In this document: positions 288 through 16,213 of the stretch, piece after piece
Layout: each line of letters begins with the position of its first letter
How positions within the stretch are numbered: position 1 is the first letter of the stretch
Origin: an uncultured Actinomycetes bacterium
Lineage (GTDB): Bacteria; Actinomycetota; Thermoleophilia; UBA2241
Assembly (NCBI GenBank): GCA_963709345.1
Contig: CAVPVX010000009.1
Span: 1-34,657, forward strand
Reading direction: 5' to 3'
Length of the DNA stretch: 34,657 nt
Made by a program: the position numbers and the translations under genes
The notes under the pieces: generated by a model
What the model was told of the DNA's origin: nothing
The model's database searches: none
What the model saw: only the letters and a program-made list of their open reading frames with translations

Positions 288-1754
288 ATGACCACCCGCA
301 TCAACCCCATTGCCCCCCGTCTCTGGTGGGACGTGCTCAATCCCAGCGAGCTCGAGCGCATCCACGAGGCGACGCTCGACGTGATGGAGAGCGTAGGCAT
401 CCGCTTCCCCAGCGAGAAGGCGCTCGACATCCTCGAAGAGAACGGCTGCGAGGTCGACCGCGCCACCCAGGTCGCCAGGCTGCCCCGCGCGGTCGTCATG
501 GAGGCCGTCTCGCAGGTGCCGGACAGTTACGTGCTCGCCGGCCGCGACCCCGACTGCGACATGCTCATCGACGGCAAGCACTGCTATCTGAGCAACGACG
601 GCTCGGGCGTCTTCGTCTTCGATCACGAGACGGGCGAGAAGCGCCCCAGCACCAAGGCGGATGCGGCGACCAGCGCCCGCTTCGTCGACGCGCTACCGAA
701 CATCAGCTACTACTGGGGCCCCGTCGTCACCAGCCGGGACGTGCCGCCGGCGACCAAGGCGCTGCACGACGCCGAGGCCGTGTTCACCAACACGAGCAAG
801 CACTTCCAGACGGTGACGACCGTCGGCGAGAAGCCCGCGCGCTACCTCGTCGAGATGGCGGCCGCCATCGTCGGCGGTACCGACAAGCTGCGCGAGCGGC
901 CGATCCTCAGCTTCATGCAGTGCGCCGTCGACCCGCTCGGCCACGACGGCCCCAACCTCGAGGCCAACCTGGTGGCCGCCGAGCACGGGCTGGCCAGCGG
1001 CTTCATGCCCATGCCTCTCGCGGCCGGCACCGGCCCGGCGACGCTGGCGGGCAACCTCGTCGTCCAGAACGCCGAGGCGCTCAGCGGCGTCGTGCTGCTT
1101 GAGCTGGCGTTCCCCGGCGTGCCCGCCTTCTTCGCCGGCGCTCCCAGCGTCATCGACCTCAAGACCGGCGGGTACACCGGCGGCTCGCCGGAGGACTACC
1201 TGCTCGCCGGCGCGTCCACCCAGCTCGCCCACTTCTACGGCGTGCCGATGGCTGTGGGCACCATGGCCACCGGGGCCAAGGAGCCCGACTGGCAGGCCGC
1301 CATCGACGACTCTCTCAGCACCTTCGCCGGCGTGATGACCAACGCCGACATGATGAACGGCGCCGGGCTGCTGAACGGCTCCAAGATCCTCAGCTACCCG
1401 CACATGGTCATGGAGACCGAGATCTACGGGATCATCCAGAAGGTCGCCGACGGGATCGTCGTGGACGACGAGACGCTGGCGCTCGACGTGATCAAGAAGG
1501 TGGGACCGAACGGTACCTACCTCTCCGAGAAGCACACGCGCCGGCACATGAAGGAGATCTGGCGCCCGAGCGTCTGGGATCGTACCCCGTACGACACTTG
1601 GCTGCGTGAGGGCAAGAATGGCGCCCTGGAGAAGGCGACGGAGATCGCCGCCGACATCCTTGCGAACTACCGGCCCGAACCGCTGCCGGACGATGTGATC
1701 AGAGAGCTGCGCGCGATCGTCGATCGCGCCGACAAGGAGTTGGTGGTCTCCTGA
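288..1754 (+). CDS. Trimethylamine methyltransferase (MttB) superfamily corrinoid methyltransferase, non-pyrrolysine
   Basis: 488 aa. N-terminal 'LNPSELERIHEATLDVMESVGIRF', 'PLAAGTGPATLAGNLVVQNAEALSG', 'AKEPDWQA', 'LALDVIKKVGPNGTYLSEKHT'. No in-frame amber codon. GAGG RBS. Confidence 0.9.
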   Translation: MTTRINPIAPRLWWDVLNPSELERIHEATLDVMESVGIRFPSEKALDILEENGCEVDRATQVARLPRAVVMEAVSQVPDSYVLAGRDPDCDMLIDGKHCYLSNDGSGVFVFDHETGEKRPSTKADAATSARFVDALPNISYYWGPVVTSRDVPPATKALHDAEAVFTNTSKHFQTVTTVGEKPARYLVEMAAAIVGGTDKLRERPILSFMQCAVDPLGHDGPNLEANLVAAEHGLASGFMPMPLAAGTGPATLAGNLVVQNAEALSGVVLLELAFPGVPAFFAGAPSVIDLKTGGYTGGSPEDYLLAGASTQLAHFYGVPMAVGTMATGAKEPDWQAAIDDSLSTFAGVMTNADMMNGAGLLNGSKILSYPHMVMETEIYGIIQKVADGIVVDDETLALDVIKKVGPNGTYLSEKHTRRHMKEIWRPSVWDRTPYDTWLREGKNGALEKATEIAADILANYRPEPLPDDVIRELRAIVDRADKELVVS

Positions 1755-1776
1755 TGCCCGCCATCGGTAGCCGCTG

Positions 1777-3216
1777 ATGCCCGCCGCCCGCCTCATCGTG
1801 TGGGACGATGCCGCCTGCTGGCGCGTCCACGAGGCGACGCTCGCGCTGCTGGAAGAGACCGGCGTCGAGGTGCGCCACCCCGGCGCTCGCGAGCTGCTGG
1901 CGGAGGCGGGCGCGCGCCTCGAAGGCACGCGCGCCCGCATCCCGGCCGCGATGGTCGATGCCGCCCTGCAGAGCGCGCCACGACGCTTCACGATCCAGGA
2001 ACGCGGCGCCTCCGCGGGGGGCGGCGGCCACGCCCGTCGCGGAGAGTTCGGCGGCCTCGACCTCAGGGACGGCAACAGCTATTTCGGCACGGGGTCGGAC
2101 TGCGTCTACGTCACCGACCCCGACTCCGGGGAGCGCCGGCAGAGCACGACCGTCGATGTCGAGGGCATGGCGGCCCTGGCCGAGAAGCTGCCCAACCTCG
2201 ACTTCGTCATGAGCATGGGGCTCCCGGGCGACGTGCCCGCCGCGGTCGGCGATCTGGCGCAGTTCGCGGCGATGCTGGCCGGCACGCGCAAACCGTTGCT
2301 GACCACGGCGCACGACGCGGTCTCCCTGCGCCGCATGCGTGACATGGCGGCCGTGTGCGGCGAAGCACGCAGCTTCGGCTGCTACGCGATGCCCAACCCG
2401 CCGCTGGTGCACAGCGAGGACGCCCTCGACAAGGTCCGCGGCTGTGCCGAACTGGAGATCCCCCTCATCTACGCGCCGGCCCCGGCGGCGGGCACCACGG
2501 CGCCCGCATCTCTGACCGCGACCATCGTGGTCGGCAACGCGGAGACGCTGAGCGGGCTCGTGGTTCATCAGCTGGTGAAGGCCGGCGCACCGTTCGTGTA
2601 CGGCGTCGGCTGCGGCGCCTTCGACATGCGTACCGCCGTGGACGTCTACGGCGCTCCCGAGCACTTCCTCGGCAACGCTGCGGCGACCGACCTCGCCAGG
2701 TTCTACGGCCTGCCGAGCTTCGCGTACGCGGCCGTGTCCGACGCCAAGTCGTTCGACGAGCAGTGGGCCGCCGAAGCCGGCATCACCGCGGTGCTTGGCG
2801 CCCTCAGCCGCGCCACGCTGCTGCACGACGTCGGGTATCTCGAGAGCGGGCTGCAGAGCAGCTACGAGACGATCGTGCTCGGCGACGAGCTGGTCGGCTA
2901 CGCTCGCGCCCTGCTCGTCGAGGTCGGCGTCGACGACGAAGCGCTGGCGCTGAACGAGATCGACGCGGTCGGCCCCGGCGGCAGTCACCTGGGACGGGGC
3001 TACACACGGATCCACCACCGCGACGCGTGGGCTCCGGCGTTGCTCGACAGGGCTGCGCACGACCGGTGGGCGGCAGCCGGCGCGACCACGCTCAGGGAGC
3101 GCGTCTTCGCCACGACCGAGGCTCTGCGGGCTGAGCCGCGCGCGTTCGCCCTGGAGGAATCGGTTCGCGAGCGGCTGAGCGCCGTGCTCGCCGAGGCGGA
3201 AGGGAGCGGCTCGTGA
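1777..3216 (+). CDS. MttB-superfamily corrinoid methyltransferase, non-pyrrolysine (paralog 2)
   Basis: 479 aa. 'RVHEATLALLEETGVEV', 'AGTTAPASLTATIVVGNAETLSGLV', 'SDAKSFDEQ', 'LHDVGYLESGLQSSYE', 'VGPGGSHL'. Confidence 0.88.
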   Translation: MPAARLIVWDDAACWRVHEATLALLEETGVEVRHPGARELLAEAGARLEGTRARIPAAMVDAALQSAPRRFTIQERGASAGGGGHARRGEFGGLDLRDGNSYFGTGSDCVYVTDPDSGERRQSTTVDVEGMAALAEKLPNLDFVMSMGLPGDVPAAVGDLAQFAAMLAGTRKPLLTTAHDAVSLRRMRDMAAVCGEARSFGCYAMPNPPLVHSEDALDKVRGCAELEIPLIYAPAPAAGTTAPASLTATIVVGNAETLSGLVVHQLVKAGAPFVYGVGCGAFDMRTAVDVYGAPEHFLGNAAATDLARFYGLPSFAYAAVSDAKSFDEQWAAEAGITAVLGALSRATLLHDVGYLESGLQSSYETIVLGDELVGYARALLVEVGVDDEALALNEIDAVGPGGSHLGRGYTRIHHRDAWAPALLDRAAHDRWAAAGATTLRERVFATTEALRAEPRAFALEESVRERLSAVLAEAEGSGS

Positions 3217-4625
3217 GCGATCCGACCATGGCGGGCGGAGCGGTGGCGCCGCACCCGATCATGACGTCACCGGCGCGGCTCGCGCTGCGTGTGCTCGGTG
3301 ACGACGACGTGGTGCGCCTTCACGCGGCCGCGCTCGAGCTTCTCGGCGCCGAGGCCGCCGCAGCTGAGGCCGCGGCTGTGTCGGCGCCGAGCAGCTTTGT
3401 CCTGGCCGGCCGCGTCCCCGAGCACGACCTGACCGTCGGCGACGGCCGCGTCTGGCTGGCGGCCGGTGTCGCCACGGCCGGACCGGGCGGCGTCCCCGCC
3501 CGCGTGCGGCCCCTCGTCGGTGGCGATCCGGTACAGGCCACTGCCGCCGACCTCGACGTCGCCTGCCGCCTGGCCGACGCACTGCCCGAGGTCGCCGTCG
3601 TCGCCGGTCCGCCCGTGCGCGCTGTCGGCGAGACGCCGCTCGGGGAGCTGGCACGCTGCTTCGCCGGCACGAGCAAGCACGTGCTGTGCGGGACGCTGAC
3701 TACCGCCGGTCAGGCGGAGGCGGCTCTCGCCATGGCCGCTGCGGTCGCCGGCTCCGAGGCCGAGCGCCGCCGCCGCCCGCCTCTGTCGCTCTGCGCCGTC
3801 GCCGATGGTCTGGATGCGGCGCTCGTCTTCGCGCACGCCGGCCTGCCGGTGGCGCTGATCGTGCCGCCGGCCGTCGCCGCGCGGGCGCCCTCAGTGCCCG
3901 CAACGGCAGGCACGCCCGTCTCGGCGGCGGGTGCGCCGTCGGGTCTCGCCGCCGCTCTTGTGCGGCACCACGCCGGCGCGCTGGCCGGCTGCGCGGCGGT
4001 GCAGGCGGCGGCTCCCGGCGCGCGGTTCCTGTATCCTGCCGATCCGGCAGCCTTCGGCCTGCCCGCGGCCGGTCCGGTGGCGGCGCTGTTCCAGCTCGGG
4101 GCGGCCCAGCTGGCCGCCCACGTCGGTCTCCCGCTCGTCGCCGCCGGCATGCGCACGGCCAGTCACGAGCCCGACTGGCAGGCGTCCACGCAGGATGCCT
4201 TCGCCTCGTTCTGCACGACCGCCGCGGGGGTCGCCGTCACCGCCGGCGCCGGCACCCTCAGCGCCGGCACCGCCTTCAGTCCGCAGCAACTGGCCATGGA
4301 CGCGGAGGTCTTCAGCTGGAACGCGAGGATCTCCCTCGGCATCGACGTCCAAGATGAGAGCATCGCGTTGGATACGATCAAGCAGGTGGGCATCGGGGGC
4401 AACTACCTCGGCCAGCGCCACACACGCAGGCACATGAAGGACGTCTGGCGACCGCGCCTGCTCGACCGTAGCATGTGGGATGCGTGGATCGCCTCCGGTA
4501 AGGAAGGCGCCTACGAAAAGGCCACCGGCATCGTGGATGGGCTGCTCGCCGGGCACGAGGTCGTGCCGCTCGGCGACGAGGTCAGCGGCATGCTCGAGCG
4601 TATCGCCGCCGAAGCCGGGCTCTAG
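3213..4625 (+). CDS. Degenerate MttB-family protein (paralog 3), possible pseudoenzyme
   Basis: 470 aa, GTGA-coupled to paralog 2. The C-terminal ~150 aa are MttB-like ('HEPDWQAS', 'IALDTIKQVGIGGNYLGQRHTRRHMKDVWRP'). The central region is Ala/Pro-rich and poorly conserved. Confidence 0.8.
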   Translation: MSDPTMAGGAVAPHPIMTSPARLALRVLGDDDVVRLHAAALELLGAEAAAAEAAAVSAPSSFVLAGRVPEHDLTVGDGRVWLAAGVATAGPGGVPARVRPLVGGDPVQATAADLDVACRLADALPEVAVVAGPPVRAVGETPLGELARCFAGTSKHVLCGTLTTAGQAEAALAMAAAVAGSEAERRRRPPLSLCAVADGLDAALVFAHAGLPVALIVPPAVAARAPSVPATAGTPVSAAGAPSGLAAALVRHHAGALAGCAAVQAAAPGARFLYPADPAAFGLPAAGPVAALFQLGAAQLAAHVGLPLVAAGMRTASHEPDWQASTQDAFASFCTTAAGVAVTAGAGTLSAGTAFSPQQLAMDAEVFSWNARISLGIDVQDESIALDTIKQVGIGGNYLGQRHTRRHMKDVWRPRLLDRSMWDAWIASGKEGAYEKATGIVDGLLAGHEVVPLGDEVSGMLERIAAEAGL

Positions 4626-4648
4626 AGACCCGGCATCACACCGCTTGC

Positions 4649-4671
4649 GCGGCGGGTCTACGGCCCGCCGC
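4649..4671 (+). other. Intergenic GC-rich stem-loop between mttB3 and kamA
   Basis: GCGGCGGG(TC)-TAC-(GG)CCCGCCGC inverted repeat with no U-tract. Possible mRNA stabiliser or attenuator. Confidence 0.4.
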
Positions 4672-4727
4672 TACCACCAGGACCAGGGACCGTGGGACGC
4701 AGGGGCCCCGCGAGAAGGAGACGGACA

Positions 4728-6023
4728 GTGATCAGAGACCGCAAGGACATACCGCTCTTCCGAGATGTGAGCGACGCCGACTGGAGCGACTACCGCTGGC
4801 AGCTCCGCAACCGGCTGAACACCACCGACGACTTCGCGCAGGTGCTCGATCTCGACGACAAGCAGCGCGCCGACCTCGACGCCTGCATGGGCAAGTTCCG
4901 CGTCAGCGTGACCCCGTACTACGCTTCCCTCATGGATCCGGACGACCCGACCTGTCCGGTGCGCATGCAGGGCGTGGCGACGACCGCTGAGCTTGTCATC
5001 CGTACGGAGGACGTCAAGGATGCCATCTCCGAGGACTTCGACTCACCGACGCCGCGCATCACGCACCGCTACCCGGACCGTGTGCTCTTCCTGGTCACGG
5101 ACATGTGCAGCATGTACTGCCGGCACTGTACGCGCAGGCGTCTGGTGGGTGGCTCCGAGGATATCGTCGCCAAGACGGAGATCGACAACGCGATCAAGTA
5201 CATCGAGCGCGCCACCGAGGTCCGCGACGTGCTCATCAGCGGCGGTGACCCGCTCACGCTGTCGGACGACAAGCTGGAGGACATCATCCGGCGCGTGCGC
5301 GCGATCGACCACGTCGAGATCATCCGCATCGGCTCGCGCATGCCCGTCGTCTGCCCGCAGCGCGTCACGCCGGAGCTCGTCGCCATGCTGAGCAAGTATC
5401 ACCCCCTGTACTTCAACACCCACTTCAACCACCCGAAGGAATTCACGCCCGAGAGCAAGCTCGCCTGCGACCGGCTGAACGACGCCGGCATCCCGATGGG
5501 CAACCAGACCGTCCTCATGCGCGGCATCAACGACTGCGCCAAGGTGATGAAGAAGCTCTCGCACAGGCTGCTCGAGTACCGCGTCAAGCCGTACTACTAC
5601 TACCAGTGCGACCTCGCCGAAGGCACGGCCCACTTCCGTACCAGCGTGGCTAAGGGCATCGAGATCTACGAGAGTCTACGCGGCCACACCACGGGTTTCG
5701 GCGTGCCGACCTACATCATCGACGCCATCGGCGGTGGCGGGAAGACGCCGGTGTACCCCAACTACGTGATCAGCCAGGCGCCCGGCCAGATCATCCTGCG
5801 CAACTACGAGGGTGTGATCAGCAAGTACACGGAACCCGACGACTACGTCGAAGGCCAGTGTCACTGCCCGGACTGCGAGGATGAGCGAACGCGCCTCGGC
5901 GTGGCCGGCATGTTCGACGAGGGCCACGGCCCCACGCTGAACGAGGTGTGGGATGCCCGGATGCAGAAGGTCGTCGACCGCAAGAACCGTATGGCCGACA
6001 TCTTCGGGCCGACCGGGGTCTGA
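4728..6023 (+). CDS. kamA: Lysine 2,3-aminomutase (radical SAM, PLP)
   Basis: CSMYCRHC radical-SAM motif, 'THRYPDRVLFLVTD', 'DVLISGGDPL', PLP Lys in 'DAIGGGGKTPV', Zn ligands 'NDC' plus 'CHCPDC'. Lysine-type acidic residues in 'YQCD' and 'YIIDA'. GTG start at 4728 after AAGGAG. Confidence 0.92.
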   Translation: MIRDRKDIPLFRDVSDADWSDYRWQLRNRLNTTDDFAQVLDLDDKQRADLDACMGKFRVSVTPYYASLMDPDDPTCPVRMQGVATTAELVIRTEDVKDAISEDFDSPTPRITHRYPDRVLFLVTDMCSMYCRHCTRRRLVGGSEDIVAKTEIDNAIKYIERATEVRDVLISGGDPLTLSDDKLEDIIRRVRAIDHVEIIRIGSRMPVVCPQRVTPELVAMLSKYHPLYFNTHFNHPKEFTPESKLACDRLNDAGIPMGNQTVLMRGINDCAKVMKKLSHRLLEYRVKPYYYYQCDLAEGTAHFRTSVAKGIEIYESLRGHTTGFGVPTYIIDAIGGGGKTPVYPNYVISQAPGQIILRNYEGVISKYTEPDDYVEGQCHCPDCEDERTRLGVAGMFDEGHGPTLNEVWDARMQKVVDRKNRMADIFGPTGV

Positions 6024-6148: not shown

Positions 6149-7933
6149 GTGCCAAAGGTATTCGTCGAGCCCATCGGGCTGACTCTGGAAGTGAGCGAGG
6201 AGGAGAACCTCCTCGACTGTCTCGTGCGCGCGTCCATCGACATCCCCACCGACTGCGCGGGGCGCGGCACCTGCGGGAAGTGCCTGGTGCGGCTCGGCTC
6301 GGGCGAGCTCACGGAGCCGACAGAGCGCGAGCTCAAGCGCATACCCGAGAAGCTGCGCGCCGAGGGCTGGCGCCTGGCTTGCCAGGCGTACCCCCGCTCG
6401 GCGCGCGTCAGCATCGAGGTGCGGGGCACGGCCGGGCAACGACGGATCCTGACGACGTCCAAGATCCATCACGGAGCCGCGCACCCCGCGGTCGTGACCG
6501 AGACCCTGGAGCTTGAGCCGCCGACGCTCGAGGACAAGCGCTCCGACCTGGAGCGCTTCGACGAGGCTCTCGGCGGTGTCGAGGTCCCGCTCTCGGTGCT
6601 CGAGTGCCTGCCGTCGACCTTGCGTGAGGGCAGGTGGAAGGTCACCGCGACGCTCTACGGCAAACGCGTCCTCGACGTGCGCGCCGGCGCCACCGAACAG
6701 GATCTCTACGGGGTGGCCGTCGATATCGGCACCTCCAAGGTCATCGCCTATCTCTTCGACCTTCGCAGCGGCGTTCTCATCGACCAGGAGGCCATCGAGA
6801 ACCCGCAGATGCGGTACGGCGAGGACGTGATCAGCCGGATCGCCCAGGCCGGGCAGTGCGACAAGAGCGCGTCCCTGGCTCACGCGGTCCGCGAAGGGAT
6901 CAACGTGGACCTCGCGGCGCTGTACGAGCGCCAGGACATCGACCCCAGGGACGTCTACGACATGACGGTGGTCGGCAACACTGCGATGCACCATCTCGCG
7001 CTCGGTCTTTCGCCCGTCGGGCTGGGTCAGGCGCCGTTCGCGCCGGCGGCGGCCGAGCCGCTCACGCTGCGCGCGAGTGAGCTCGGCATCAACATCAACC
7101 CGGGCGGCGGCGTCCACTTCCCGCCGCCGATCGCCGGTTTTGTCGGCTCGGATGCCCTGGCGGTGATCGCCGCCACGCGACTCGCCGGCAAGAAGCGGCC
7201 CTCGATGGCGATCGACATCGGCACCAACACCGAGATCGCCCTCGCCCACGACGGCCGCGTGACGGTGACGAGCTGCGCCTCCGGCCCCGCCTTCGAGGGC
7301 TACCAGATCCGCAACGGGATGAAGGCCGTGGCCGGCGCCATCGAGCGCGTCAAAATCACCCGCAAGGGCGAGCCGACCGACATCCAGACGATCGCTGCCG
7401 CCGATCCCATCGGGATCTGCGGTTCGGGGGTGGTCGACCTGCTCGCGGGTCTCGTCCACGCCGGCGTCGTCGACAAGAGCGGGCGCATGCAGGAGCACCC
7501 GCGCGTGCGCAGAGGCGAAGAGGGTCTTGAGTACCTGCTCGCGGAGGGGCGGCACGGCGACATCGTCTTCACCCAGCACGATGTGCGCAGCCTTCAGCTC
7601 GCAAAGGGCGCCATCCACAGTGGCTGGGAACTGCTGCTCGAGACCCTGAACGTGCCGATCGAGGAGCTTGATCGCGTCTACATCGCCGGCGCGTTCGGCA
7701 ACTACCTCGACCTCGGCGCCGCCCAGTATCTCGGCCTCTTCCCGCCGGTCCCGACGAAGCGCGTCGGGTTCGTCGGCAACGCCGCCGGCGTGGGCGCCCA
7801 GATGGCTCTCATCGACGTGCGCGCGAGGAAGCGGATGGCGCGCCTCCGGGAGCGCATCGAGTTCCTCGACCTGGCCACCGACAAGCGTTTCCTGGATGTC
7901 TTCGCCGGCCGCCTCGGCTTCGCCGGCGACTGA
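6149..7933 (+). CDS. ATP-dependent reductive activator of corrinoid proteins (RamA/RACE/DUF4445; 2Fe-2S ferredoxin + ASKHA)
   Basis: N-terminal 'CAGRGTCGKC...RLACQ' [2Fe-2S] motif. ASKHA motifs 'DIGTS', 'YGEDVISRI', 'DIGTNTE', 'SGPAFEG', 'GICGSG', 'AGAFG'. AAGGAG RBS. Confidence 0.92.
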   Translation: MPKVFVEPIGLTLEVSEEENLLDCLVRASIDIPTDCAGRGTCGKCLVRLGSGELTEPTERELKRIPEKLRAEGWRLACQAYPRSARVSIEVRGTAGQRRILTTSKIHHGAAHPAVVTETLELEPPTLEDKRSDLERFDEALGGVEVPLSVLECLPSTLREGRWKVTATLYGKRVLDVRAGATEQDLYGVAVDIGTSKVIAYLFDLRSGVLIDQEAIENPQMRYGEDVISRIAQAGQCDKSASLAHAVREGINVDLAALYERQDIDPRDVYDMTVVGNTAMHHLALGLSPVGLGQAPFAPAAAEPLTLRASELGININPGGGVHFPPPIAGFVGSDALAVIAATRLAGKKRPSMAIDIGTNTEIALAHDGRVTVTSCASGPAFEGYQIRNGMKAVAGAIERVKITRKGEPTDIQTIAAADPIGICGSGVVDLLAGLVHAGVVDKSGRMQEHPRVRRGEEGLEYLLAEGRHGDIVFTQHDVRSLQLAKGAIHSGWELLLETLNVPIEELDRVYIAGAFGNYLDLGAAQYLGLFPPVPTKRVGFVGNAAGVGAQMALIDVRARKRMARLRERIEFLDLATDKRFLDVFAGRLGFAGD

Positions 7934-8930
7934 CCGGCGCAGCGAACCCGGCGAGGGGGGCGCCGCGGGCGCACCCCTCAGTGGACCTCACGGCGGACCC
8001 GGCGCGGGCGGCGCGGGCCCCGCGCCTGATCGCCGGGTCCGCGGCTACACAGAGATCGCCGTCGCATCGCTGATCCTGGGCACATCCGCGACGCTGATCC
8101 AGATTGCGACGATGCCGTCCAGCCTGCTGGTCGTGCTGCGCATGGCGCTGGCCGGCGTCGTCCTCGGAGCGCTGTTTCTCAAGACCGGCGGTATCGACGA
8201 GGTGCGCCGCTCGGGTCACTTCCGCCGCATGGTGCTCGTGGGCTTCGTGGTTGCTCTCGAGCTCATCTTCTACTTCACATCCATCCGCATGGCCAACGTG
8301 ACCGTGGCCGTCTCGCTCGAGTACACGGCGCCGGTGTTCGTCGCGCTGCTGGCGCCGTGGGTGCTGCGCACGCGGCGCCAGACCGTCGACATGGTCGCCG
8401 TCGGGGTGGCCGTGGGCGGTATGGCCCTCCTGGTGCTGCCGGGGCTGGCGCTCGGAGAGGGCCGTACGAGCATCCCCGGCGTCGTGTTCGGTCTTCTCGC
8501 CGGGCTCATGTTCGCGACCGCGATGATGCTCATCAAGAGCATGGGCACGGAGGTGCGGGGCTCCACCTTCGCGCTGTCCTTCTGCCTCGGCAGCGTCATC
8601 CTGCTGACGCCGCTGGCGGTGTGGCAGACGATCACCACGGGTTACCAGCTCACGTGGACGGACACGTGGATCGTGATCGTCAGCGGGCTGATCTACACGG
8701 CCCTGTGCTTCAGCCTCTTCACCGACGGCATCCGCTACGTTCGCGTCGAGCACGCCGGCATCCTGGGGTACATTGAGCCGGTGACGTCGCCGCTGTGGGC
8801 GTTCCTGCTCATCGGTGAGAGCCCGCCGTGGACGACGTTCGCCGGTGGAGCGCTGATCGTTATTGCCGGGATCCTCGTCATCGTCTTCGGCAAGGGTGCG
8901 GCCGAGCCGCTGATCGAGCCCATCACATGA
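7896..8930 (+). CDS. EamA/DMT family transporter 1
   Basis: About 10 hydrophobic segments, 'LEYTAPVF', 'RVEHAGILGYIEPV'. Start uncertain: the nearest in-frame ATG (7896) overlaps the ramA-like gene. Confidence 0.85.
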   Translation: MSSPAASASPATDRRSEPGEGGAAGAPLSGPHGGPGAGGAGPAPDRRVRGYTEIAVASLILGTSATLIQIATMPSSLLVVLRMALAGVVLGALFLKTGGIDEVRRSGHFRRMVLVGFVVALELIFYFTSIRMANVTVAVSLEYTAPVFVALLAPWVLRTRRQTVDMVAVGVAVGGMALLVLPGLALGEGRTSIPGVVFGLLAGLMFATAMMLIKSMGTEVRGSTFALSFCLGSVILLTPLAVWQTITTGYQLTWTDTWIVIVSGLIYTALCFSLFTDGIRYVRVEHAGILGYIEPVTSPLWAFLLIGESPPWTTFAGGALIVIAGILVIVFGKGAAEPLIEPIT

Positions 8931-9883
8931 GCGGCGGGGGCCCAGCGCCCGCCGCCGGTGTCGTCGCCCCGGGCGCCCAGCCTACCGAGCGCCTCCGGGG
9001 CTACGTCGAGGTCGGTCTCGCCAGCCTGGCGAACGGGTCCATCGGCGTCATGGTCACCTACGCCGACATGCCGGCCACGATGCTCCTCTGCCTGCGCATG
9101 GTCATCGCCGCCGCCGTCCTCGGCGTCGTCGTCCTCGCCGGCGGCAGCTGGCGTGATCTGCGCACGCCGGGCGCGCCCCTTCGCGTGCTCGGCATCAGCA
9201 TCGCGCTGTCGCTGAACCTCATCTCCTACTTCCTCGCCATCCGCTACACGGGCGTCGCCGTCGCGATCTTCCTGAGCTACCTGGCGCCGGTGTACCTGGC
9301 GTTCGTCGCGCCGCTGATCCTCAAGGAACGGACGGAGCGCGTGGTCTTCGTCGCGCTCGCGATCGGTCTGGCCGGCATGGCCCTCATCCTCGTGCCGGGC
9401 CTCGTGCTGGAGGGCGTCGAGCTCTCGGCCAAGGGCCTCTTCTTCGGCTGGCTGTCGGGAGCCGCCTACGCCGTCTACCTGCTCTTCGCCAAGAGTCTGC
9501 GCGGCCTGAACGTGCGCAGCACGGCGGTGGTGTTCACGCAGAGCGCCTTCACCGCCGCCGTGATGCTCGTTCCCGGCCTCCTCGCCGTGAGCGCGGCGCA
9601 GTACGAGTACACGGGGGTGGACCTCCTCATGGCGGCGCTTCTCGGGCTCGTAACGACCGCCTTCAGCTTCAGTCTCTTCATGGACGGCCTGCACTACATC
9701 CGCGTGCAGCACGCCAGCATCATGGCGTACATCGAGCCGGTGAGCGCTCCGCTGTACGCGCTCGCCTTTCTCGGCCAGGTGCCGAGCGGATGGACGATCG
9801 CCGGCGGGGCGCTGATCGTCGCCGCGGGCATCCTCGTGGTGCTGTACGCTCGTGGAGAGCCCGAGCTGGAGCCGCTCGGATGA
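8927..9883 (+). CDS. EamA/DMT family transporter 2
   Basis: ATGA overlap with the previous gene, 'FLSYLAPVY', 'RVQHASIMAYIEPV'. Confidence 0.88.
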   Translation: MSGGGPAPAAGVVAPGAQPTERLRGYVEVGLASLANGSIGVMVTYADMPATMLLCLRMVIAAAVLGVVVLAGGSWRDLRTPGAPLRVLGISIALSLNLISYFLAIRYTGVAVAIFLSYLAPVYLAFVAPLILKERTERVVFVALAIGLAGMALILVPGLVLEGVELSAKGLFFGWLSGAAYAVYLLFAKSLRGLNVRSTAVVFTQSAFTAAVMLVPGLLAVSAAQYEYTGVDLLMAALLGLVTTAFSFSLFMDGLHYIRVQHASIMAYIEPVSAPLYALAFLGQVPSGWTIAGGALIVAAGILVVLYARGEPELEPLG

Positions 9884-10845
9884 GCGGCGACCGGCGGACC
9901 GGCGGCTCTCAGGCTCGAGGCGGAGCCGCTTCACCCGGCGCGGCCCAGCGCCGCGACCCGCTCGGCTACGGCCTCGTCGTCGGCGCGTATCTGCTCTTCG
10001 GTATCAGCGCGACGCTGGTCACCTGGGCCGACGCCCCCGAGAGCATCCTCCTCGTCATCCGCTTCGCGCTCGCGGCGGTCCTGCTTCTACTCGTCTTCTC
10101 CCGCCGCCGGCCACTCCGGGGCATGCTGCGGCCCGGCCGGTGGCAGCGGCTCCTCCTCATGGGCGCTCTCGACGCGTTCACGATGATCGCCTACTTCTTC
10201 GCCGTGCGTACCATCGGCGTGGCCATCGCCACCTTCTTCCTCTTCCTGCAGCCGGTGTGGGTGGCGTTCATCGCCCCCCGCTTTCTGCACGCGTCGACCG
10301 AGCGCATCGTCTACGTGGCGCTGGCGATCGCCGTGGGCGGCATGGCCATCATCCTCTGGCCCACGTTCACCGGCGACGCGGTGGGTCTCTCCGTGCTCGG
10401 GCTCGCGGCAGGGCTCGCGGCGGGGTGGGCTTTCGCCTTCTTCCAGATGATCGTCAAGGGGCTGACGCGCGAGGTCTCGAGCATCACGATGGTCACTGCT
10501 GAGTGCGCGCTCGACGCCCTGTTCATCCTGCCGCTCGCCCTCTGGCAGCTTGCCGGCTGGGGACAGGGCCTCACCGCGCGAGATTGGGTCGCCGCCGTGG
10601 TCATGGGCCTGGTGGCCACGGCGCTTGGTTACACGATGTGGATGGAAGGCGTGGCGCGGATCCGCGTGCAGCACAGCTCGATCCTCGGACTGCTCACGCC
10701 GGTCGCCGCGCCGGTCTACGCACTCGTCTTCCTCGGACAGGGCATCGGCCCGTGGACGGTCGTCGGCGGGGCGCTGATCCTGTTTGCCGGCGCGCTGGTC
10801 GTCGTGTTCGGCGCCGGCGACGCGGAGCTTGAGGCGCCGCTGTGA
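9880..10845 (+). CDS. EamA/DMT family transporter 3
   Basis: ATGA overlap, 'FFLFLQPVW', 'RVQHSSILGLLTPV'. Confidence 0.88.
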   Translation: MSGDRRTGGSQARGGAASPGAAQRRDPLGYGLVVGAYLLFGISATLVTWADAPESILLVIRFALAAVLLLLVFSRRRPLRGMLRPGRWQRLLLMGALDAFTMIAYFFAVRTIGVAIATFFLFLQPVWVAFIAPRFLHASTERIVYVALAIAVGGMAIILWPTFTGDAVGLSVLGLAAGLAAGWAFAFFQMIVKGLTREVSSITMVTAECALDALFILPLALWQLAGWGQGLTARDWVAAVVMGLVATALGYTMWMEGVARIRVQHSSILGLLTPVAAPVYALVFLGQGIGPWTVVGGALILFAGALVVVFGAGDAELEAPL

Positions 10846-11831
10846 GCGGCGGCCGGCAGAGCGCCGCCGCCGCGCCGCCGGCTACCCGGGGCCAGGTCGT
10901 GACCGGACGTCGGCGTCGCGACCCTCTCGGGTACGTCATCGTCCTGATCTCGTACCTGGGCATGGCCGGCAGCGCCCCGTTGGTCGCCTGGGCGGACGCG
11001 CCCGAGGCGATCATCCTCTGCCTGCGCATGGCGTTCGCGGCGCTCGCCCTCGGCGCCGTGTTCCTGCGGCGCCCGATGATCGCCGACTGGCGCCGCCCGG
11101 GCGCCGCCTGGCGTCTCGTCCTCATGGTGGCGATGTCGTCGGTCACGCTGCTGCTCTTCTTCTACGCCGTGCGCCACACCAGCGTCGCCATCGCCATGTT
11201 CCTCCTCTTCCTCATGCCGGTCTGGGTAGCGCTCGCGGCGCCTCGGATCTTCAAGTCGCCGCGCGAGCCTGTCGTGTGGCCGGCGCTCGGCCTTGCCCTG
11301 GCCGGCCTTGCGGTCATCCTCCTCCCCGACCTGCTCGGCGAGGGCATCGAGCTCTCGGTCGCCGGCCTGCTCGCGGCGCTGTTCACCGGCTTCGGCTATG
11401 CGACCTATGCGGTCTCGGTGAAGGGGCTGACGAAGATCGTCGCGCCGTCGACGATCTCGACGGCCGAGGCCGCCGGCGACACCCTCCTGGTGCTCCCGCT
11501 CGCGATCTGGCAGTTCACGAGCACCGGATATCAGCTCGACCAGCGCGCCTGGGTGGCCGCCATCATCATGGGCGTCCTCTGCACGGCGATCCCGTACACT
11601 CTCTGGATCGAGGGCACGCGCCGCGTCCGCGTGGAGCACGTCACGATCCTCGGCTACGTCGAGCCAGTGGCCGGGCCTCTGTACGCGGTGTTCCTCGTCG
11701 GGCAGCTGCCCGGGCTCTGGACGTGGGTCGGCGGAGCGATGATCCTCGGCGCCGGGCTCCTCGTCGTCGTGTTCGGCCGAGGCGAGGGCGAAGCCTCGGT
11801 CGCCGCGGCCGCCGAGCCGGGCCCGCTGTGA
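10842..11831 (+). CDS. EamA/DMT family transporter 4
   Basis: GTGA overlap, 'FLLFLMPVW', 'RVEHVTILGYVEPV'. Confidence 0.88.
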   Translation: MSGGRQSAAAAPPATRGQVVTGRRRRDPLGYVIVLISYLGMAGSAPLVAWADAPEAIILCLRMAFAALALGAVFLRRPMIADWRRPGAAWRLVLMVAMSSVTLLLFFYAVRHTSVAIAMFLLFLMPVWVALAAPRIFKSPREPVVWPALGLALAGLAVILLPDLLGEGIELSVAGLLAALFTGFGYATYAVSVKGLTKIVAPSTISTAEAAGDTLLVLPLAIWQFTSTGYQLDQRAWVAAIIMGVLCTAIPYTLWIEGTRRVRVEHVTILGYVEPVAGPLYAVFLVGQLPGLWTWVGGAMILGAGLLVVVFGRGEGEASVAAAAEPGPL

Positions 11832-11862
11832 TGGCGGCTGCCCTCTCGCTTGAGGCCGCTCC

Positions 11863-12774
11863 ATGAGCCGCGCCACTCGCGGCTACCTCCTGGTCGCCGG
11901 GTCGTTCCTCATCATGGGCCTTATCGGTGCGCTCGTGGAGTGGGCGACGGCGCCGGAGAGCGCGCTGCTCGTGCTCCGCTTCGCGACGGCGGGGCTCGTA
12001 CTCGGCGTGGTCTTCGCGCGCCGCCGGCCGCTGGCGGGAGCGGCCCGGCGCTCCGTCTGGCCGCGCCTCCTCCTGATGGCGGCCGTCGACGCCTTGACGC
12101 TCCTGCTCTTCTTCGTCGCCATACGCGGCACGAGCGTCGCGATCGGCATGTTCCTGCAGTTCCTCGCGCCGGTCTGGGTGGCGCTCATCGCGCCGCGCAT
12201 CTTCCGCGTCCGGACCGAGGCCATCGTGTACCCGGCGCTCGCGGTCGCCCTCGCCGGGCTCGCCGTGATCCTGGCGCCGTCGCTGCTCGGCGAGGGCGTC
12301 AAACTCTCGCCGTGGGGGGTGACGGCGGGTCTGCTCGCAGGCCTCGGCTACGCGGCGTTCCAGCTCGTGGTCAAGGACCTGACCAAGCGCGTCTCGGCCG
12401 TGACGATCGTCTTCACCGAGGCTTGGCTCGACGCCCTCATCTTGCTGCCGCTGGCGCTCTGGCAGACGGTCGGCGCCGGCTACCACCTGACCACGCGCGA
12501 CCTCGTCTCCGGGCTCGTCCTCGGCGTGCTCTGCACGGCGCTCGCCTACCTCATGTGGACCTACGGGGTGGGGATGATCAAGGTGCAGCACAGTTCCATC
12601 CTCGGCTACCTCGAGCCGGTCTCCGCGCCGCTGTACGCGCTGCTTCTGCTCGGCCAGGGCATCTCCGTGTGGACGGTGCTCGGCGGGGCCCTGATCGTGG
12701 TCGCCGGCCTGCTGGTGGTGCTGCTCGGCGAGCACGAGGAGGAGGGCGTGACGTCCTTGGAGCCGGCGCCGTGA
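11863..12774 (+). CDS. EamA/DMT family transporter 5
   Basis: 303 aa, 'FLQFLAPVW', 'KVQHSSILGYLEPV'. Confidence 0.88.
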   Translation: MSRATRGYLLVAGSFLIMGLIGALVEWATAPESALLVLRFATAGLVLGVVFARRRPLAGAARRSVWPRLLLMAAVDALTLLLFFVAIRGTSVAIGMFLQFLAPVWVALIAPRIFRVRTEAIVYPALAVALAGLAVILAPSLLGEGVKLSPWGVTAGLLAGLGYAAFQLVVKDLTKRVSAVTIVFTEAWLDALILLPLALWQTVGAGYHLTTRDLVSGLVLGVLCTALAYLMWTYGVGMIKVQHSSILGYLEPVSAPLYALLLLGQGISVWTVLGGALIVVAGLLVVLLGEHEEEGVTSLEPAP

Positions 12775-13712
12775 GTGGACACTCGCAGCGCCTCAGGGGC
12801 TACGCCATGGTCGGCGGCTCGGCCGTCATGTTCGGCGCCACGGGGGCGTGGGTCGGCATGACCGACCTCCCGGCCAGCACGGTGCTCTGCATGCGCATGG
12901 CGCTGGCCGCCGTCATGGTCGCGCTTCTCGGCGGGGCGAGGCGGTGGGTGCGGCAGTCGCGCCGCCCCGGCGTGTCGCGTCGCCTGCTCGCGCTCGGTCT
13001 CGTCGACGCCCTGCAGCTCTACACGTTCATGCTTGCGCTGCGCCATCTCGACGTGGCGCTGGCGGTGTTCCTCTCGTACATGTCGCCCATCTACATCGCG
13101 CTGGTCGCACCGCGCCTGCTCAGGCAGCGCACCGAGTCGGTCGTCGCCGTCGCGCTGGTGCTTGCCGTGTCGGGCATCGTCGTCATGGTGGCTCCCGGGC
13201 TCATGGACCCCTCGTTGCGCGTGTCGACCCTCGGGGTGGCGCTGGGCCTGGCTTCCGGGCTGCTCCTCGCGGTCTTCTTCCTGATCGCCAAGACGCTCAG
13301 CGCGGACGTCGACGGCAGCACCATGCTCATCTCGAACGGTGTGATCGTGGCTGCCGTCATGCTGCCGGTCGGTCTGATCCAGTGGGCCGGAGTCGGCTTC
13401 GCGTTCGCGCTGACGGACTTCTGGGCGGTGCTGGCGCTGGCCGTCTTCAGCACCGCTCTGGGCGGCACCGTCTTCCTGCACGGCATGCGGTACATCCCGG
13501 TGCAACACACCTCCATCGTCGGGCTCCTCGAGCCGGCGAGTGCACCGGTCTTCGCGCTCGTCCTCCTGGCCGAGAAGCCGGTGTTCTGGACGTTGCTGGG
13601 TGGCGCCCTGATCCTCGGCGGCGCCGTGCTGGTGGTGCTGTTCGGCGCCACCGAGGAGGGTCTTGCCGGATCACCGGAGGAAGTGGTGGGCGAGGCGGGG
13701 GCCTCTCGGTGA
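12771..13712 (+). CDS. EamA/DMT family transporter 6
   Basis: GTGA overlap at 12771 (C-terminal half of the 620-aa track ORF), 'FLSYMSPIY', 'PVQHTSIVGLLEPA'. Confidence 0.87.
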   Translation: MSGHSQRLRGYAMVGGSAVMFGATGAWVGMTDLPASTVLCMRMALAAVMVALLGGARRWVRQSRRPGVSRRLLALGLVDALQLYTFMLALRHLDVALAVFLSYMSPIYIALVAPRLLRQRTESVVAVALVLAVSGIVVMVAPGLMDPSLRVSTLGVALGLASGLLLAVFFLIAKTLSADVDGSTMLISNGVIVAAVMLPVGLIQWAGVGFAFALTDFWAVLALAVFSTALGGTVFLHGMRYIPVQHTSIVGLLEPASAPVFALVLLAEKPVFWTLLGGALILGGAVLVVLFGATEEGLAGSPEEVVGEAGASR

Positions 13713-14079
13713 GTCGCCACCGGCGCGGCATCGGGAGGCCGGCGGCGTCAGGGAGTCCGGACTGGACATCGTGGCGAGCCGCCGGGCGCAACTCTTCCTC
13801 CGCGTGCACGCGCGCGGGGTGCCAAGACGCGGCGTATCCGATACGCTCTTGACGCGGCCGGGGGCGTGTGCCGTCGCCGGCTCGCGGGCTCGAGACGACC
13901 GTCTTGGCGAGCCCGCCCGGCTCTGGAGGGAGCCCGGCATGACCATCCTCCTCATCTACAGCCGACTCTGGCCGGACCCGGGTTGAGACCGGGACGCGGC
14001 ATCCGCCTACTGTGAATCCTCAGGGGGGGCGATCCCGGACCGCCGCCCTCCTCGCCTCATCTGGCCGAAAGGAGCTCCG

Positions 14080-15348
14080 ATGACCAAACCCGTTCAGAGC
14101 GCTCCCAAGCTCGATCTCACCAAGTCCATGAGCATGCTCGAGGATGCTCAGCGCCTCACTCCCGGCGGCGTCGGCGGCATCCGCCGGGCCTACAACTTCG
14201 TGGTCGGCGAGTACCCCGTGTTCCTCACTCATGGCCACGGCGGCCACATCATCGATGTCGACGGCAACGAGTACATCGACATGCTTTGCGCTTACGGGCC
14301 GATCATCCTCGGCTACGTCGAGGACGAGATCAACGACGCCGCAAAGGCGCAGATGGACAAGGGCTTCTGCTTCAGCCTTGTGCAGCCGCTGCAGAACGAG
14401 CTCGAGCAGCGGCTTGCCGACATCATGCCGTGCGGCGAGCAAACGATCCTCGTCAAGACCGGCTCGGACGCGACCAACGCGGCCGTCCGCGCGATGCGCG
14501 CCTACACCGGCCGCGACAAGATCGCCCGCTGCGGCTACCACGGCTGGGGGGACTGGTGCGTGGAGCATCACGGCGGCGTGCCCAAGGCCGTGACCGACCT
14601 CACGGTCGAGTTCGAGTACGGCGACATCGCCCACCTCGAGCGTGTCTTCGCCGAGAACCCGGACGAGATCGGCGGCGTGGTCATCACCCCGGTCGGCCAT
14701 CCCATGGCCAAGCCGATCATCCCGCCGCCGGACGGCTATCTGCAGGCGGTCGTCGACCTCTGCCACGAGAACGGCACGGTCGTGACCTTCGACGAGGTCC
14801 GCACGGGATTCCGCGTCGCCATGGGCGGCGCCAGCGAGCGCTACGGCGTGGTGCCGGACCTCACGACGGTCGGCAAGGCGATGGCCAACGGCTACGCCAT
14901 CGCTGCGCTCGTCGGCAAGCGCGAGGTCATGAGCGTCTACGAGAAGGACGCCTTCCTCAGTTCCACGTACTTCCCCAACAGCCTTGAGATGGCGGCCAGT
15001 ATGAAGTGCCTGGACATCCTCGAGCGCGAGAAGGTGCCGGACGCGATCTGGGAGCGCGGGACGAAGTTCCTCGCGCGACTCGGCGAGATCGTCGACGCCT
15101 CCGGTGTGCCGGTGACCAGGAGCGGCATCCCGCCGATGCCGTTCCTCACATTCGATCACGCGGACGACCGCTACAAGGAGCGGCGGACGGAGTTCTACAC
15201 GCAGTGCATCCGCCGCGGGCTCTTCGTGCAGCCGTACCACCACTGGTACATCTGCTACCGCCATACCGAGCAGGACCTCGACCGCGCGCTCGAGGTGGTC
15301 GAGGAGAGTCTTGCCTACGTGGCCCAGGAGTACCCTGTCGGCAAGTAG
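14080..15348 (+). CDS. Class III PLP aminotransferase, HemL-like; probable 3-aminobutyryl-CoA (beta-amino) aminotransferase, Kat-like
   Basis: 'DVDGNEYID', 'KTGSDAT', 'GYHG', 'FDEVRTGFR', PLP Lys in 'TVGKAMANG'. Directly upstream of kce. AAAGGAG RBS. The family is secure; the substrate is inferred from context. Confidence 0.75.
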   Translation: MTKPVQSAPKLDLTKSMSMLEDAQRLTPGGVGGIRRAYNFVVGEYPVFLTHGHGGHIIDVDGNEYIDMLCAYGPIILGYVEDEINDAAKAQMDKGFCFSLVQPLQNELEQRLADIMPCGEQTILVKTGSDATNAAVRAMRAYTGRDKIARCGYHGWGDWCVEHHGGVPKAVTDLTVEFEYGDIAHLERVFAENPDEIGGVVITPVGHPMAKPIIPPPDGYLQAVVDLCHENGTVVTFDEVRTGFRVAMGGASERYGVVPDLTTVGKAMANGYAIAALVGKREVMSVYEKDAFLSSTYFPNSLEMAASMKCLDILEREKVPDAIWERGTKFLARLGEIVDASGVPVTRSGIPPMPFLTFDHADDRYKERRTEFYTQCIRRGLFVQPYHHWYICYRHTEQDLDRALEVVEESLAYVAQEYPVGK

Positions 15349-15375
15349 CCGCCCGCGACGGATCGAGGAGGCCGG

Positions 15376-16203
15376 ATGGACAAGCTCATCATCACCGTCG
15401 CCGGTGTCGGCGCTGAGACGACGAAGGAGGCGCAGCCGGGACTGCCGGTCACGGCTGCGGAGATAGGCGCCGACGCGGCGCGCTGCCGTGAGGCCGGCGC
15501 CGCGATGTACCACCTGCACGTACGCGACGCCGAGGCCAACCCGACGCAGGCCAAGGAGGTCTTCGCGGCCGCGATCGAGGCGATCCGCGAGCGCACGGAC
15601 ATCATCATCCAGACGAGCACCGGCGGCGCCATGGGCATGACCGCCGACGAGCGGCTGCAGCCGCTCGAGCTCGGCCCGGAGATGGCGTCACTCACGACCG
15701 GCACCGCCAACTTCGGCGACGACGTGTTCTTCAACGACACGGCGCTGATGACGGAGTTCTACACGCGCATGCAGAAGAAGCGTGTGCGGCCCGAGTTCGA
15801 GATCTTCGAGGCCGGGCAGATCGACAACGCGCTCAAGCTGGTGAAGAGCCACGGTCCGGCCGGCCCTCTCATGCACTGGGACTTCGTGCTCGGCGTGCCC
15901 GGCAGCATGAGCGGCGAGCCGCGCAACCTCGTCTTTCTCGTGGACAGGGTTCCCGAGGGCAGCACCTGGACGTGCACCGGCATCGGCCGCTGGCACATGC
16001 CGGTCGCAATGACGGCGCTCGCGCTGGGCGGCAACGTGCGCCTCGGCTTTGAGGACAACGTCTTCTACCACAAGGGAGTCCTCGCCAAGGAGAACGCCGA
16101 GCTCGTCGGCCGCGTCGCGCGGATCTCGCGCGAGTGGGGGCGCGAGCCGGCGAGCCCCGACGAGGCGCGGAAGATCCTCAAGCTGGGCGAATACGCGGGC
16201 TGA
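15376..16203 (+). CDS. kce: 3-keto-5-aminohexanoate cleavage enzyme (BKACE/DUF849)
   Basis: 'KLIITVAGVGAE', Zn-binding 'HLHVRD', 'QTSTGG', 'PEFEIFE', 'NVRLGFEDN'. GAGGAG RBS. Confidence 0.9.
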   Translation: MDKLIITVAGVGAETTKEAQPGLPVTAAEIGADAARCREAGAAMYHLHVRDAEANPTQAKEVFAAAIEAIRERTDIIIQTSTGGAMGMTADERLQPLELGPEMASLTTGTANFGDDVFFNDTALMTEFYTRMQKKRVRPEFEIFEAGQIDNALKLVKSHGPAGPLMHWDFVLGVPGSMSGEPRNLVFLVDRVPEGSTWTCTGIGRWHMPVAMTALALGGNVRLGFEDNVFYHKGVLAKENAELVGRVARISREWGREPASPDEARKILKLGEYAG

Positions 16204-16213
16204 GGCGGAGGAT

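Follow-up and report, generated by a model that had tools for sequence, protein, structure and literature searches.

The window analysed here, the whole of a 34.7-kb contig (CAVPVX010000009.1), belongs to the 3.1-Mb, 98%-complete genome (~70% GC) of an uncultured soil actinobacterium of the Thermoleophilia. It carries at 288-16203 a block of genes in which methyltransferases of the MttB family adjoin enzymes of lysine fermentation. This gene set, together with a link between one MttB clade (that of MttB1) and the L-lysine 2,3-aminomutase KamA that recurs in a second phylum, points to an undescribed anaerobic use of methylated lysine. The explanation that we favour, and hold to be moderately probable, is that an N-methylated lysine is demethylated to lysine, which then enters the variant of lysine fermentation that uses Kat (3-aminobutyryl-CoA aminotransferase); the nature of the substrate is deduced from gene context.

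Pfam and NCBIfam matches place all the named genes of the block co-directionally on the + strand, at or near the positions that the initial annotation of this DNA had given them (Table 1). They bear out its gene set, i.e. three MttB genes, KamA, an activase, six EamA transporters, a Kat-like aminotransferase and the cleavage enzyme Kce; the coordinates likewise confirm that kamA lies between mttB3 and the activase gene.

A complete lysine fermentation pathway split between two loci

Aligned to PDB 2A5H (E 7e-159), KamA shows the radical-SAM Cys motif CSMYCRHC, R134, D293, D330 and K337. From the literature on 2A5H we take R134, D293 and D330 to be the lysine-binding residues and K337 to be the pyridoxal phosphate (PLP) lysine; D293 and D330 presumably bind the free epsilon-ammonium group. 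These four residues are invariant in 124 KamAs, and no position conserved at 90% or more in the classical KamAs differs in the MttB-linked ones. Since the substrate residues are invariant, free L-lysine most likely enters KamA, and the MttB step would then come before it. KamA is single-copy in the genome. Its start is probably about 12 codons downstream of 4692, and its homologs are 430-431 residues long. The best 120 homologs listed are all 73-94% identical and mostly unnamed, and none of these comes from beyond the bacterial family of the window (family f1).

The class III aminotransferase, single-copy like KamA, lies directly 5' of kce. Its best NCBIfam matches are glutamate-1-semialdehyde (GSA) aminomutases, all under their cut-offs, and its nearest named ESM Atlas cluster, found by embedding search with no alignment, is "3-aminobutyryl-CoA aminotransferase" (score 0.99). 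Gene context and the embedding search thus make it a candidate Kat, as a lead. A search of the genome for the Kal domain found none. In the available part of Perret et al. 2011 (PMC3149608), Kat is described as a HemL-like gene standing in the place of kal.

The third enzyme, a BKACE, is barely above the cut-off of the Kce model NF052387 (383.2 bits against 382). It aligns with PDB 2Y7D (E 1.3e-81) and conserves His-x-His, E143, R226 and E230-D231, of which we take His46, His48 and Glu230 to be the Zn ligands and Glu143, Arg226 and Asp231 to be the further functional residues. It is also single-copy in the genome. The genes kamB, kamD, kamE, thiolase and kdd are found together on contig C1 (384-390 kb, locus L033), all above NCBIfam cut-offs. 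Judging from these matches, a complete lysine fermentation of the Kat variant is encoded, with steps 1, 4 and 5 in the window and the remainder on C1. The lysine fermentation enzymes claimed for the window are therefore genuine, and with the C1 locus they make up the full Kat-variant pathway in one genome.

A D-ornithine fermentation set was also seen in this genome (contig C2, 186.9-193.7 kb; locus L034, 6891-13653). It comprises GlmL-like, OraE, OrtB and Ord genes near a divergent amino-acid ABC importer; OraE, OrtB and Ord are above NCBIfam cut-offs and the GlmL-like gene is not.

Precisely KamA, the aminotransferase and BKACE are grouped in the window, apart from kamDE-kdd, and this grouping would suit a route independent of KamDE. 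The three enzymes would act in series on an N6-substituted lysine, through a beta-lysine derivative and a 3-keto-6-(substituted amino)hexanoate, to give acetoacetate and a 4-(methylamino)butyryl-CoA, e.g. gamma-butyrobetainyl-CoA; the MttBs would demethylate this product or act midway. As a precedent, Pseudomonas B4 reportedly degrades N6-acetyl-beta-lysine through cleavage of 3-keto-6-acetamidohexanoate, and a quaternary N6 would stop the keto-amine from cyclising. HemL-like aminotransferases moreover include beta-amino-acid transaminases, according to the available part of PMC3149608. Such a route is nevertheless distinctly improbable. D293, D330 and all the other highly conserved positions of KamA are unchanged, and BKACE is above the Kce equivalog cut-off, though barely, with the Kce residues kept. 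The KamDE and Kdd of the genome would be left with no other KamA or BKACE to serve them, and the Bacillota clusters described below have KamA without aminotransferase or BKACE.

The MttB1 clade is distinct from glycine betaine and pyrrolysine enzymes

The three MttB proteins are full-length matches to PF06253, all above its cut-off of 25 bits (Table 1). They are 27-34% identical pairwise (29% for MttB2 and MttB1), and the start of mttB3 overlaps the stop of mttB2 by 4 bases. The best solved-structure match of MttB1 and MttB3 is the MttB of Methanosarcina barkeri (PDB 7XCL), which depends on pyrrolysine (Pyl). In contrast to this enzyme, an in-frame stop (TAG) is absent from MttB1, MttB2 and MttB3, and alignments to solved structures put Ala, Val and Arg, respectively, at the Pyl position. 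With TIGR02369, the model of Pyl-type trimethylamine methyltransferases, the three reach 464, 293 and 216 bits, under the cut-off of 525. The whole genome contains 64 PF06253 matches in its 3.1 Mb; several of these other MttB genes do carry an in-frame TAG. Large MttB expansions are a feature of peat and soil Thermoleophilia.

MttB1 is about equally far from the solved MtgB (E 7.5e-74) and from the solved Pyl-MttB (E 1.5e-76). In MtgB, as given in the available part of PMC13080624, betaine is bound by Y97 and F356 (cation-pi) and by R312 and H348 (carboxylate). The positions Y97/R312/H348/F356 are occupied by G/A/N/S in MttB1 and by S/F/H/G in MttB2, i.e. neither carries the MtgB set. Across the clade of MttB1, the Y97 position is Gly in 6 of 7 sequences of family f1 (Ala in the other) and in 18 of 18 from Bacillota, while Ser is invariant at the F356 position. 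The R312 position is Ala in f1 and Ser in Bacillota, and the H348 position is Asn and Thr respectively. By these residues MttB1 does not qualify as a glycine betaine enzyme: small or polar residues have taken the place of the four that bind betaine in MtgB. The clade has 18 signature positions, including D215, D303 and D340, that are rare among the other 72 family members; the signature also has small residues at the sites by which MtgB holds the betaine carboxylate. A bulkier substrate bearing one more positive charge would perhaps fit these residues.

MttB1 orthologs are 71-94% identical across the bacterial family, and beyond it the protein is isolated. Among 1.84 billion representatives its best full-length match is at 60% identity (P0121, which stands for a paralog from f1), the next at 52% and the others at 43% or less. 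The 60%-identical paralog of this genome (C1:439116-440585; locus L160, 7720-12585) is directly 3' of a polar-amino-acid ABC importer (SBP_bac_3, permease and ATPase), with further MttB genes around. One genus has a copy of this paralog immediately 5' of MttB1.

MttB2 was not detected at the locus in four genomes (G003, G009, G014 and G022), nor in several other genera. MttB3 aligns poorly to solved MttB in its central barrel. Its orthologs within the genus are 49-80% identical, and other genera match only ~115-205 of its C-terminal residues. This pattern suggests that MttB3 is possibly degenerate; in the tree described below it is a weakly supported sister of the MttB1 clade.

MttB1-like genes adjoin KamA in a second phylum

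Genome contigs were searched with a low-GC actinobacterial KamA, which gave 80 loci from other phyla, mostly Bacillota. kdd adjoins KamA in 51 of these loci and kamD in 45, and any MttB gene lies within 10 kb in two only. The MttB of both loci (L076 of a Symbiobacterium sp. metagenome-assembled genome, MAG, and L098 of a Clostridia MAG) shares 57-59% identity with MttB1 over ~483 residues, i.e. its full length. The two genomes have 8 and 11 MttB matches, with a single MttB1-like gene each and the next best at 39-40% identity. The order in L076 is MttB1-like gene, corrinoid protein, weak pterin-binding protein, sigma-54 activator with PAS, KamA, corrinoid protein, second MttB, pterin-binding methyltransferase 2 (MT2) and NhaC-type transporter. 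In L098 the MttB1-like gene, a corrinoid protein and an activator share one strand, and KamA is divergent.

Both genomes (G679 and G680) fall in one class of Bacillota, of which 210 genomes were searched. An MttB1-clade gene, 48-60% identical, is present in 16 of them. KamA is found in all 16 clade holders, against 96 of the 194 other genomes (Fisher p 2.5e-5), and the nine genomes with two KamA matches are all clade holders (9/9, p 2e-9); both p-values overstate the association, as kin are not independent. Among the 17 Bacillota clade loci, KamA is within 5 kb in eight, in at least five gene orders, and kce-kamE-kamD is within 10 kb in two more. The linkage claimed for the window thus reaches beyond its relatives: the MttB1 clade adjoins KamA or other lysine genes in a second phylum, in several rearranged orders.

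A FastTree phylogeny of 105 MttB sequences, a set that left out MtcB, MtpB and MtyB, groups the MttB1 of the family, its paralog and 18 Bacillota genes in one clade (support 0.909). In a tree of 124 KamAs, however, the KamAs linked to MttB in one phylum do not form a sister group to those in the other. From the disagreement of the two trees it looks as if the linkage had been assembled more than once.

The Bacillota loci showed some other features. In one subclade (L150, L153, L155, L156 and L158) the MttB1-like gene and a corrinoid protein follow an MFS_2-type transporter, not KamA, and two of these five loci are 5-8 kb from kce-kamE-kamD. An Eis-like acetyltransferase was considered as a recurrent cluster member and rejected: it occurs in 2 of the 17 loci, and the two are distantly alike. 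An Rfam scan of eight Bacillota loci gave one tRNA and no riboswitch.

The partner conserved across phyla is KamA alone and not the entire pathway, and an extra KamA copy is frequent in clade holders. Both facts would agree with a lysine-related methylamine that is neither N-epsilon- nor N-alpha-methyl-L-lysine, e.g. a methylated beta-lysine or a hydroxylated trimethyllysine, KamA interconverting the alpha and beta forms. We think such a substrate quite unlikely. The clusters have no recurrent gene for the extra chemistry (e.g. a hydroxylase), and a methylated beta-lysine would give beta-lysine directly, making KamA superfluous for catabolism.

The activase and the corrinoid machinery are shared by the whole genome

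The activase gene encodes Fer2, RACo_linker, Raco_middle and RACo_C_ter domains, by which it belongs to the RACo/RamA group in general. It stays well under the models of the subfamilies, with 124 bits against 500 for TIGR04270 (RamA) and 408 against 800 for NF040756 (AcsV). The label "RamA-type" first given to it must consequently be dropped in favour of RACo/AcsV-like. This is the sole RACo_C_ter (PF14574) gene of the 98%-complete genome and so cannot belong to the block alone. The placing of kamA between the mttB genes and "their" activator is accordingly right as to position and weakened as an argument for a specific tie, the activase being shared by the whole genome. The gene stays at its site in two reduced relatives (L063 and L064) that miss genes on both sides of it.

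The block contains no corrinoid (B12-binding) protein and no pterin-binding MT2 (corrinoid:tetrahydrofolate methyltransferase); the window is thus not a self-contained operon of methyltransferase 1 (MT1), corrinoid protein, MT2 and activase. Elsewhere in the genome there are 24 B12-binding matches and one homolog of the Bacillota pterin-binding MT2 (C3:93.0-93.8 kb). One of the corrinoid proteins shares 58% identity with the one that accompanies the MttB1-like gene in Bacillota, and it is a candidate partner for MttB1. It is encoded on contig C10 (55.9-61.8 kb; locus L161, 5889-11833), where an aminotransferase, an MttB, this corrinoid protein, an ornithine cyclodeaminase-family gene and another MttB are followed by a divergent TetR/BetI regulator. 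This looks like a further MttB set tied to amino-acid metabolism.

The pterin-binding methyltransferases of the Bacillota clusters, and the reversibility of the reaction, would also allow a biosynthetic direction, in which methyl groups pass from methyl-tetrahydrofolate to the corrinoid protein and on to lysine or beta-lysine to yield a methylated solute. This is very improbable. The block has the catabolic Kce and Kat genes, and the clade is beside kamDE-kce in relatives. Amine methylation from methyl-cobalamin is energetically uphill, and the characterised family members demethylate, in the parts of the literature available to us.

Conservation of the block in the family and the phylum

Within the genus, 20 loci from 19 genomes were compared. 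The genes from MttB1 to BKACE are in identical order in 14 of them, and the other six are cut by contig ends, with the retained part in the same order. In 13 loci from eight other genera, an MttB1 ortholog (78-85% identical) is present in nine, lost to a contig start in two and missing in two (L037 and L040). All 13 keep KamA-RACo. Where the contig extends, EamA, aminotransferase and BKACE are kept as well, except that L040 is without the aminotransferase. No MttB1 ortholog without lysine genes was found among the genomes searched. The synteny check thus had a mixed outcome: the block is kept family-wide, and this is not specific to it, as the unrelated GGDEF and UPF0182 genes downstream are equally syntenic.

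More telling are two small, 98%-complete genomes of the same genus (G041 and G042), which have RACo-GGDEF-UPF0182 at the site. KamA and KamD are absent from both, as is an MttB1 ortholog (the best match is 32-34% identical), and the site is without EamA, Kat and Kce. The segments on either side of the activase are therefore missing together with the rest of lysine fermentation.

Outside the family, a sample of 400 Actinomycetota genomes gave a KamA homolog in 13, and nine loci with at least 51% identity were examined. MttB is within ~10 kb of KamA in none of the nine. Eight are beside kdd, some with kamDE or kce in addition, and one has none of these genes.

Proposed route and the evidence against it

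We propose that the block is a module that feeds into a lysine fermentation pathway split between two loci. An N-methylated L-lysine would be imported, and our guess for the importer is the EamA array. This lysine could be methylated at N-alpha, or it could be N-epsilon-tri-, di- or mono-methyl-lysine from protein turnover or from plants and fungi. MttB1 would transfer the methyls to a corrinoid protein whose gene lies outside the block, and the other MttB paralogs would perhaps act on other methylation states. The single pterin-binding methyltransferase of the genome would hand the methyls to tetrahydrofolate, and its single RACo activase would keep the corrinoid reduced. The freed L-lysine would then go to KamA (window), KamDE and Kdd (C1), Kce and the Kat-like enzyme (window) and finally the thiolase (C1).

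The gene identities, the completeness of the pathway, its conservation and the link of MttB1 with KamA across phyla are observed. From them we infer the methylated-lysine substrate, the positions of the methyls, the number removed and the role of EamA; lysine methylated at N-alpha, or another lysine-related methylamine, would fit just as well.

A number of facts weigh against this route, for which all the support is gene context. The weakest link is chemical. The non-Pyl MttB enzymes known so far take a single methyl off a quaternary amine, while lysine has to enter the pathway with neither amino group substituted; three successive demethylations would be a new chemistry for the family. Either several MT1 paralogs would have to work in series or the substrate would have fewer than three methyls. 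With 64 MttB-family matches in the genome, some chance adjacency is expected. The activase is common to the whole genome, so that its position flanking kamA says less. Family-level synteny is little informative, since it extends to the unrelated GGDEF/UPF0182 neighbours, and in one genome (G061, which has no MttB1-like gene) and at the G096 locus there are lysine genes without an MttB1 ortholog.

The Bacillota loci also contribute to this side. Seven of the 17 have no lysine gene in the available sequence, and for three of them (L148, L157 and L159) the contig stops at the MttB gene or close to it. The second MttB of the Bacillota is not orthologous to MttB2 and has no ortholog in this genome, where its best match is 35% identical. 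Finally, the Bacillota clusters keep a second KamA that is apparently ordinary, with no active-site change.

Several of these facts, i.e. the 64 matches in 3.1 Mb, the sole activase, the equal synteny of GGDEF and UPF0182 and the seven Bacillota loci, speak for MttBs that act on an unrelated quaternary amine. The lysine genes would then adjoin them by shared regulation (nitrogen or energy status) or by inherited order, and the activase would be there by chance. To this can be added the 367-base gap between the sixth EamA gene and the Kat-like gene, by reason of which the block may be two transcription units. We regard this account as unlikely because it is specifically the MttB1 clade, and not MttBs generally, that stands beside KamA or kamDE-kce in a second phylum and in several orders. 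All 16 clade holders have KamA and all nine two-KamA genomes are holders, and the two segments split by the activase are jointly missing in G041 and G042. Demethylation of an N-methylated lysine followed by fermentation of the lysine thus remains our preferred explanation.

Transporter array, upstream region and neighbouring genes

Table 1. Position of the features of the block and of the region upstream of mttB1.
Feature	Position	Strand	Match or remark
Extended -10-like element TGATAGACT	111..119	+	Conserved in an alignment of 19 upstream regions, family f1
Small ORF, 18 codons, upstream of mttB1	126..182	+	GTG...TAG, peptide end ...STINRACGL
MttB1, non-Pyl MttB-family methyltransferase	288..1754	+	PF06253, E 3.1e-97, 326 bits
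MttB2, divergent non-Pyl MttB paralog	1777..3216	+	PF06253, E 6e-72, 243 bits
MttB3, fast-evolving MttB paralog	3213..4625	+	PF06253, E 2.9e-45, 155 bits
KamA, L-lysine 2,3-aminomutase	4692..6023	+	TIGR03820, 561.5 bits (cut-off 525.4)
RACo/AcsV-type reductive activase, N-terminal 2Fe-2S domain	6149..7933	+	PF00111 (Fer2), PF17650, PF17651, PF14574
Six tandem EamA (DMT) genes	7668..13712	+	PF00892 in all six
EamA ORFs, first to sixth	7668-8930, 8828-9883, 9790-10845, 10842-11831, 11863-12774, ~12771-13712	+	
HemL-like class III aminotransferase, candidate Kat	14080..15348	+	PF00202
BKACE, Kce-type cleavage enzyme	15376..16203	+	PF05853, E 5e-97

The true starts of the first three EamA genes are further in than the starts of their open reading frames (ORFs). 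The sixth gene is in the frame of a long ORF (11850..13712; PF00892 E 4.9e-22). The ORF at 12848-13852, tried as the sixth EamA, is in the wrong frame and has no Pfam or NCBIfam match. EamA 1-5 are 36-57% identical to one another and 33-40% to the sixth, and the number of copies in relatives (loci L013-L049) goes from 0 to ~7.

Upstream of MttB1, relatives have one extra MttB gene. It is not visible here because the window is a complete contig, cut before that point. The ORF at 2-256 was rejected as a gene, being the translation of conserved intergenic DNA. By pattern search, the element TGATAGACT stands 6-7 nucleotides ahead of the small ORF. Its conservation suggests a promoter function, although a generic sigma-70 scan of 1-16600 gave 0 promoters. 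In 17 of 19 family loci an ORF of 15-18 codons occupies this place; its C-terminal half is conserved, and its stop, at one position, is either TAA or TAG. Possibly it is leaderless and encodes a leader peptide that regulates the mttB1 operon; Rfam gives no family match in its region. A terminator scan of 1-16600 yielded seven weak terminator-like sites where 3.3 would be expected, with no notable gene boundary among their positions, and an Rfam scan of the window returned two tRNAs only, without a riboswitch.

The block is followed at 16442-22072 by genes for a GAF-GGDEF-HD protein and a UPF0182 membrane protein, whose position is kept family-wide. Three consecutive genes at 23263-26960 include two with the type IV pilin N-terminal methylation motif, one of these with fn3 in addition; the third (391 residues) matches no family. 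The stretch 27147-28567, in which a tRNA gene is followed by a small gene with HTH_3 and by an ORF of 197 codons whose sole match is to the N-terminal domains of a phage integrase, is probably the remnant of an integrated element.

Relation to known systems and significance

The closest described systems for MttB1 are those of MtgB/MtgC/MtgA in Desulfitobacterium hafniense and of the proline betaine, carnitine and gamma-butyrobetaine enzymes MtpB, MtcB and MtyB with MtqC/MtqA/RamQ in Eubacterium limosum. Like MttB1, these MT1 enzymes are non-Pyl and have the MttB fold (PF06253), and they need a corrinoid protein, an MT2 and an activase. The Bacillota relatives of MttB1 share the exact MT1, corrinoid protein and MT2 layout of these quaternary-amine systems. 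The MttB1 clade differs from them by its tie to KamA and other lysine genes, and here the corrinoid protein, MT2 and activase are shared genome-wide, all but the activase being encoded elsewhere.

For the lysine part, the classical clusters kdd-kamA-kamB-kamD-kamE, with or without kce (Clostridia, Fusobacterium and other Actinomycetota), have the same KamA, KamDE, Kdd and Kce families at 50-66% identity. In contrast to the window, MttB adjoins kamA in only the 2 of 80 loci from other phyla and the 0 of 9 from other Actinomycetota reported above. The Kat-variant fermentation of 'Candidatus Cloacimonas acidaminovorans' and a digester Bacteroidetes contig (available part of PMC3149608) likewise combines KamA, KamDE, Kdd and Kce with a thiolase and, in place of Kal, an aminotransferase like HemL. 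Here the pathway is in two loci, with its KamA/Kat/Kce part among MttB genes, the activase and six EamA genes, and the likeness of the aminotransferase to Kat comes from context and embedding, not from alignment.

As to the methyl donor, among the papers listed on the MttB superfamily since 2019, and as far as their available parts go, the substrates are carnitine, gamma-butyrobetaine, choline, glycine betaine, proline betaine, trimethylamine, tetramethylammonium, chloromethane and dichloromethane. Peat Actinobacteriota express Pyl and non-Pyl mttB genes, according to the available part of Ellenbogen et al. 2023 (PMC10805028), a text in which the word "lysine" has 0 occurrences. Our full-text literature search found no paper linking trimethyllysine with MttB and, judged by titles and abstracts, no on-topic paper joining trimethyllysine and corrinoid. 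It agrees in this with the initial annotation, which knew of no described corrinoid-dependent methyl-lysine demethylase. The literature searched likewise holds no oxygen-independent anaerobic route that removes the methyls of lysine.

Methylation of lysine ranks among the most common modifications of proteins, plants contain trimethyllysine in free form, and in the gut this compound is under discussion as a trimethylamine precursor. We tentatively suggest, as a possibility short of an even chance, that the MttB1 clade is the first cobalamin-dependent N-methyl-lysine (e.g. N-epsilon-trimethyllysine) methyltransferase and that, with MttB partners, it enables anaerobes of at least two phyla to ferment methylated lysine set free from proteins and plant matter, the methyls going to folate and not to trimethylamine. 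If this is true, the MttB superfamily would gain a new substrate class, which would explain part of its expansions in peat and soil Thermoleophilia. That class would be a defined clade with signature residues and with representatives in two phyla that can be directly expressed and assayed. It would also provide for the demethylation of trimethyllysine without release of trimethylamine, which would be of interest to the gut field.

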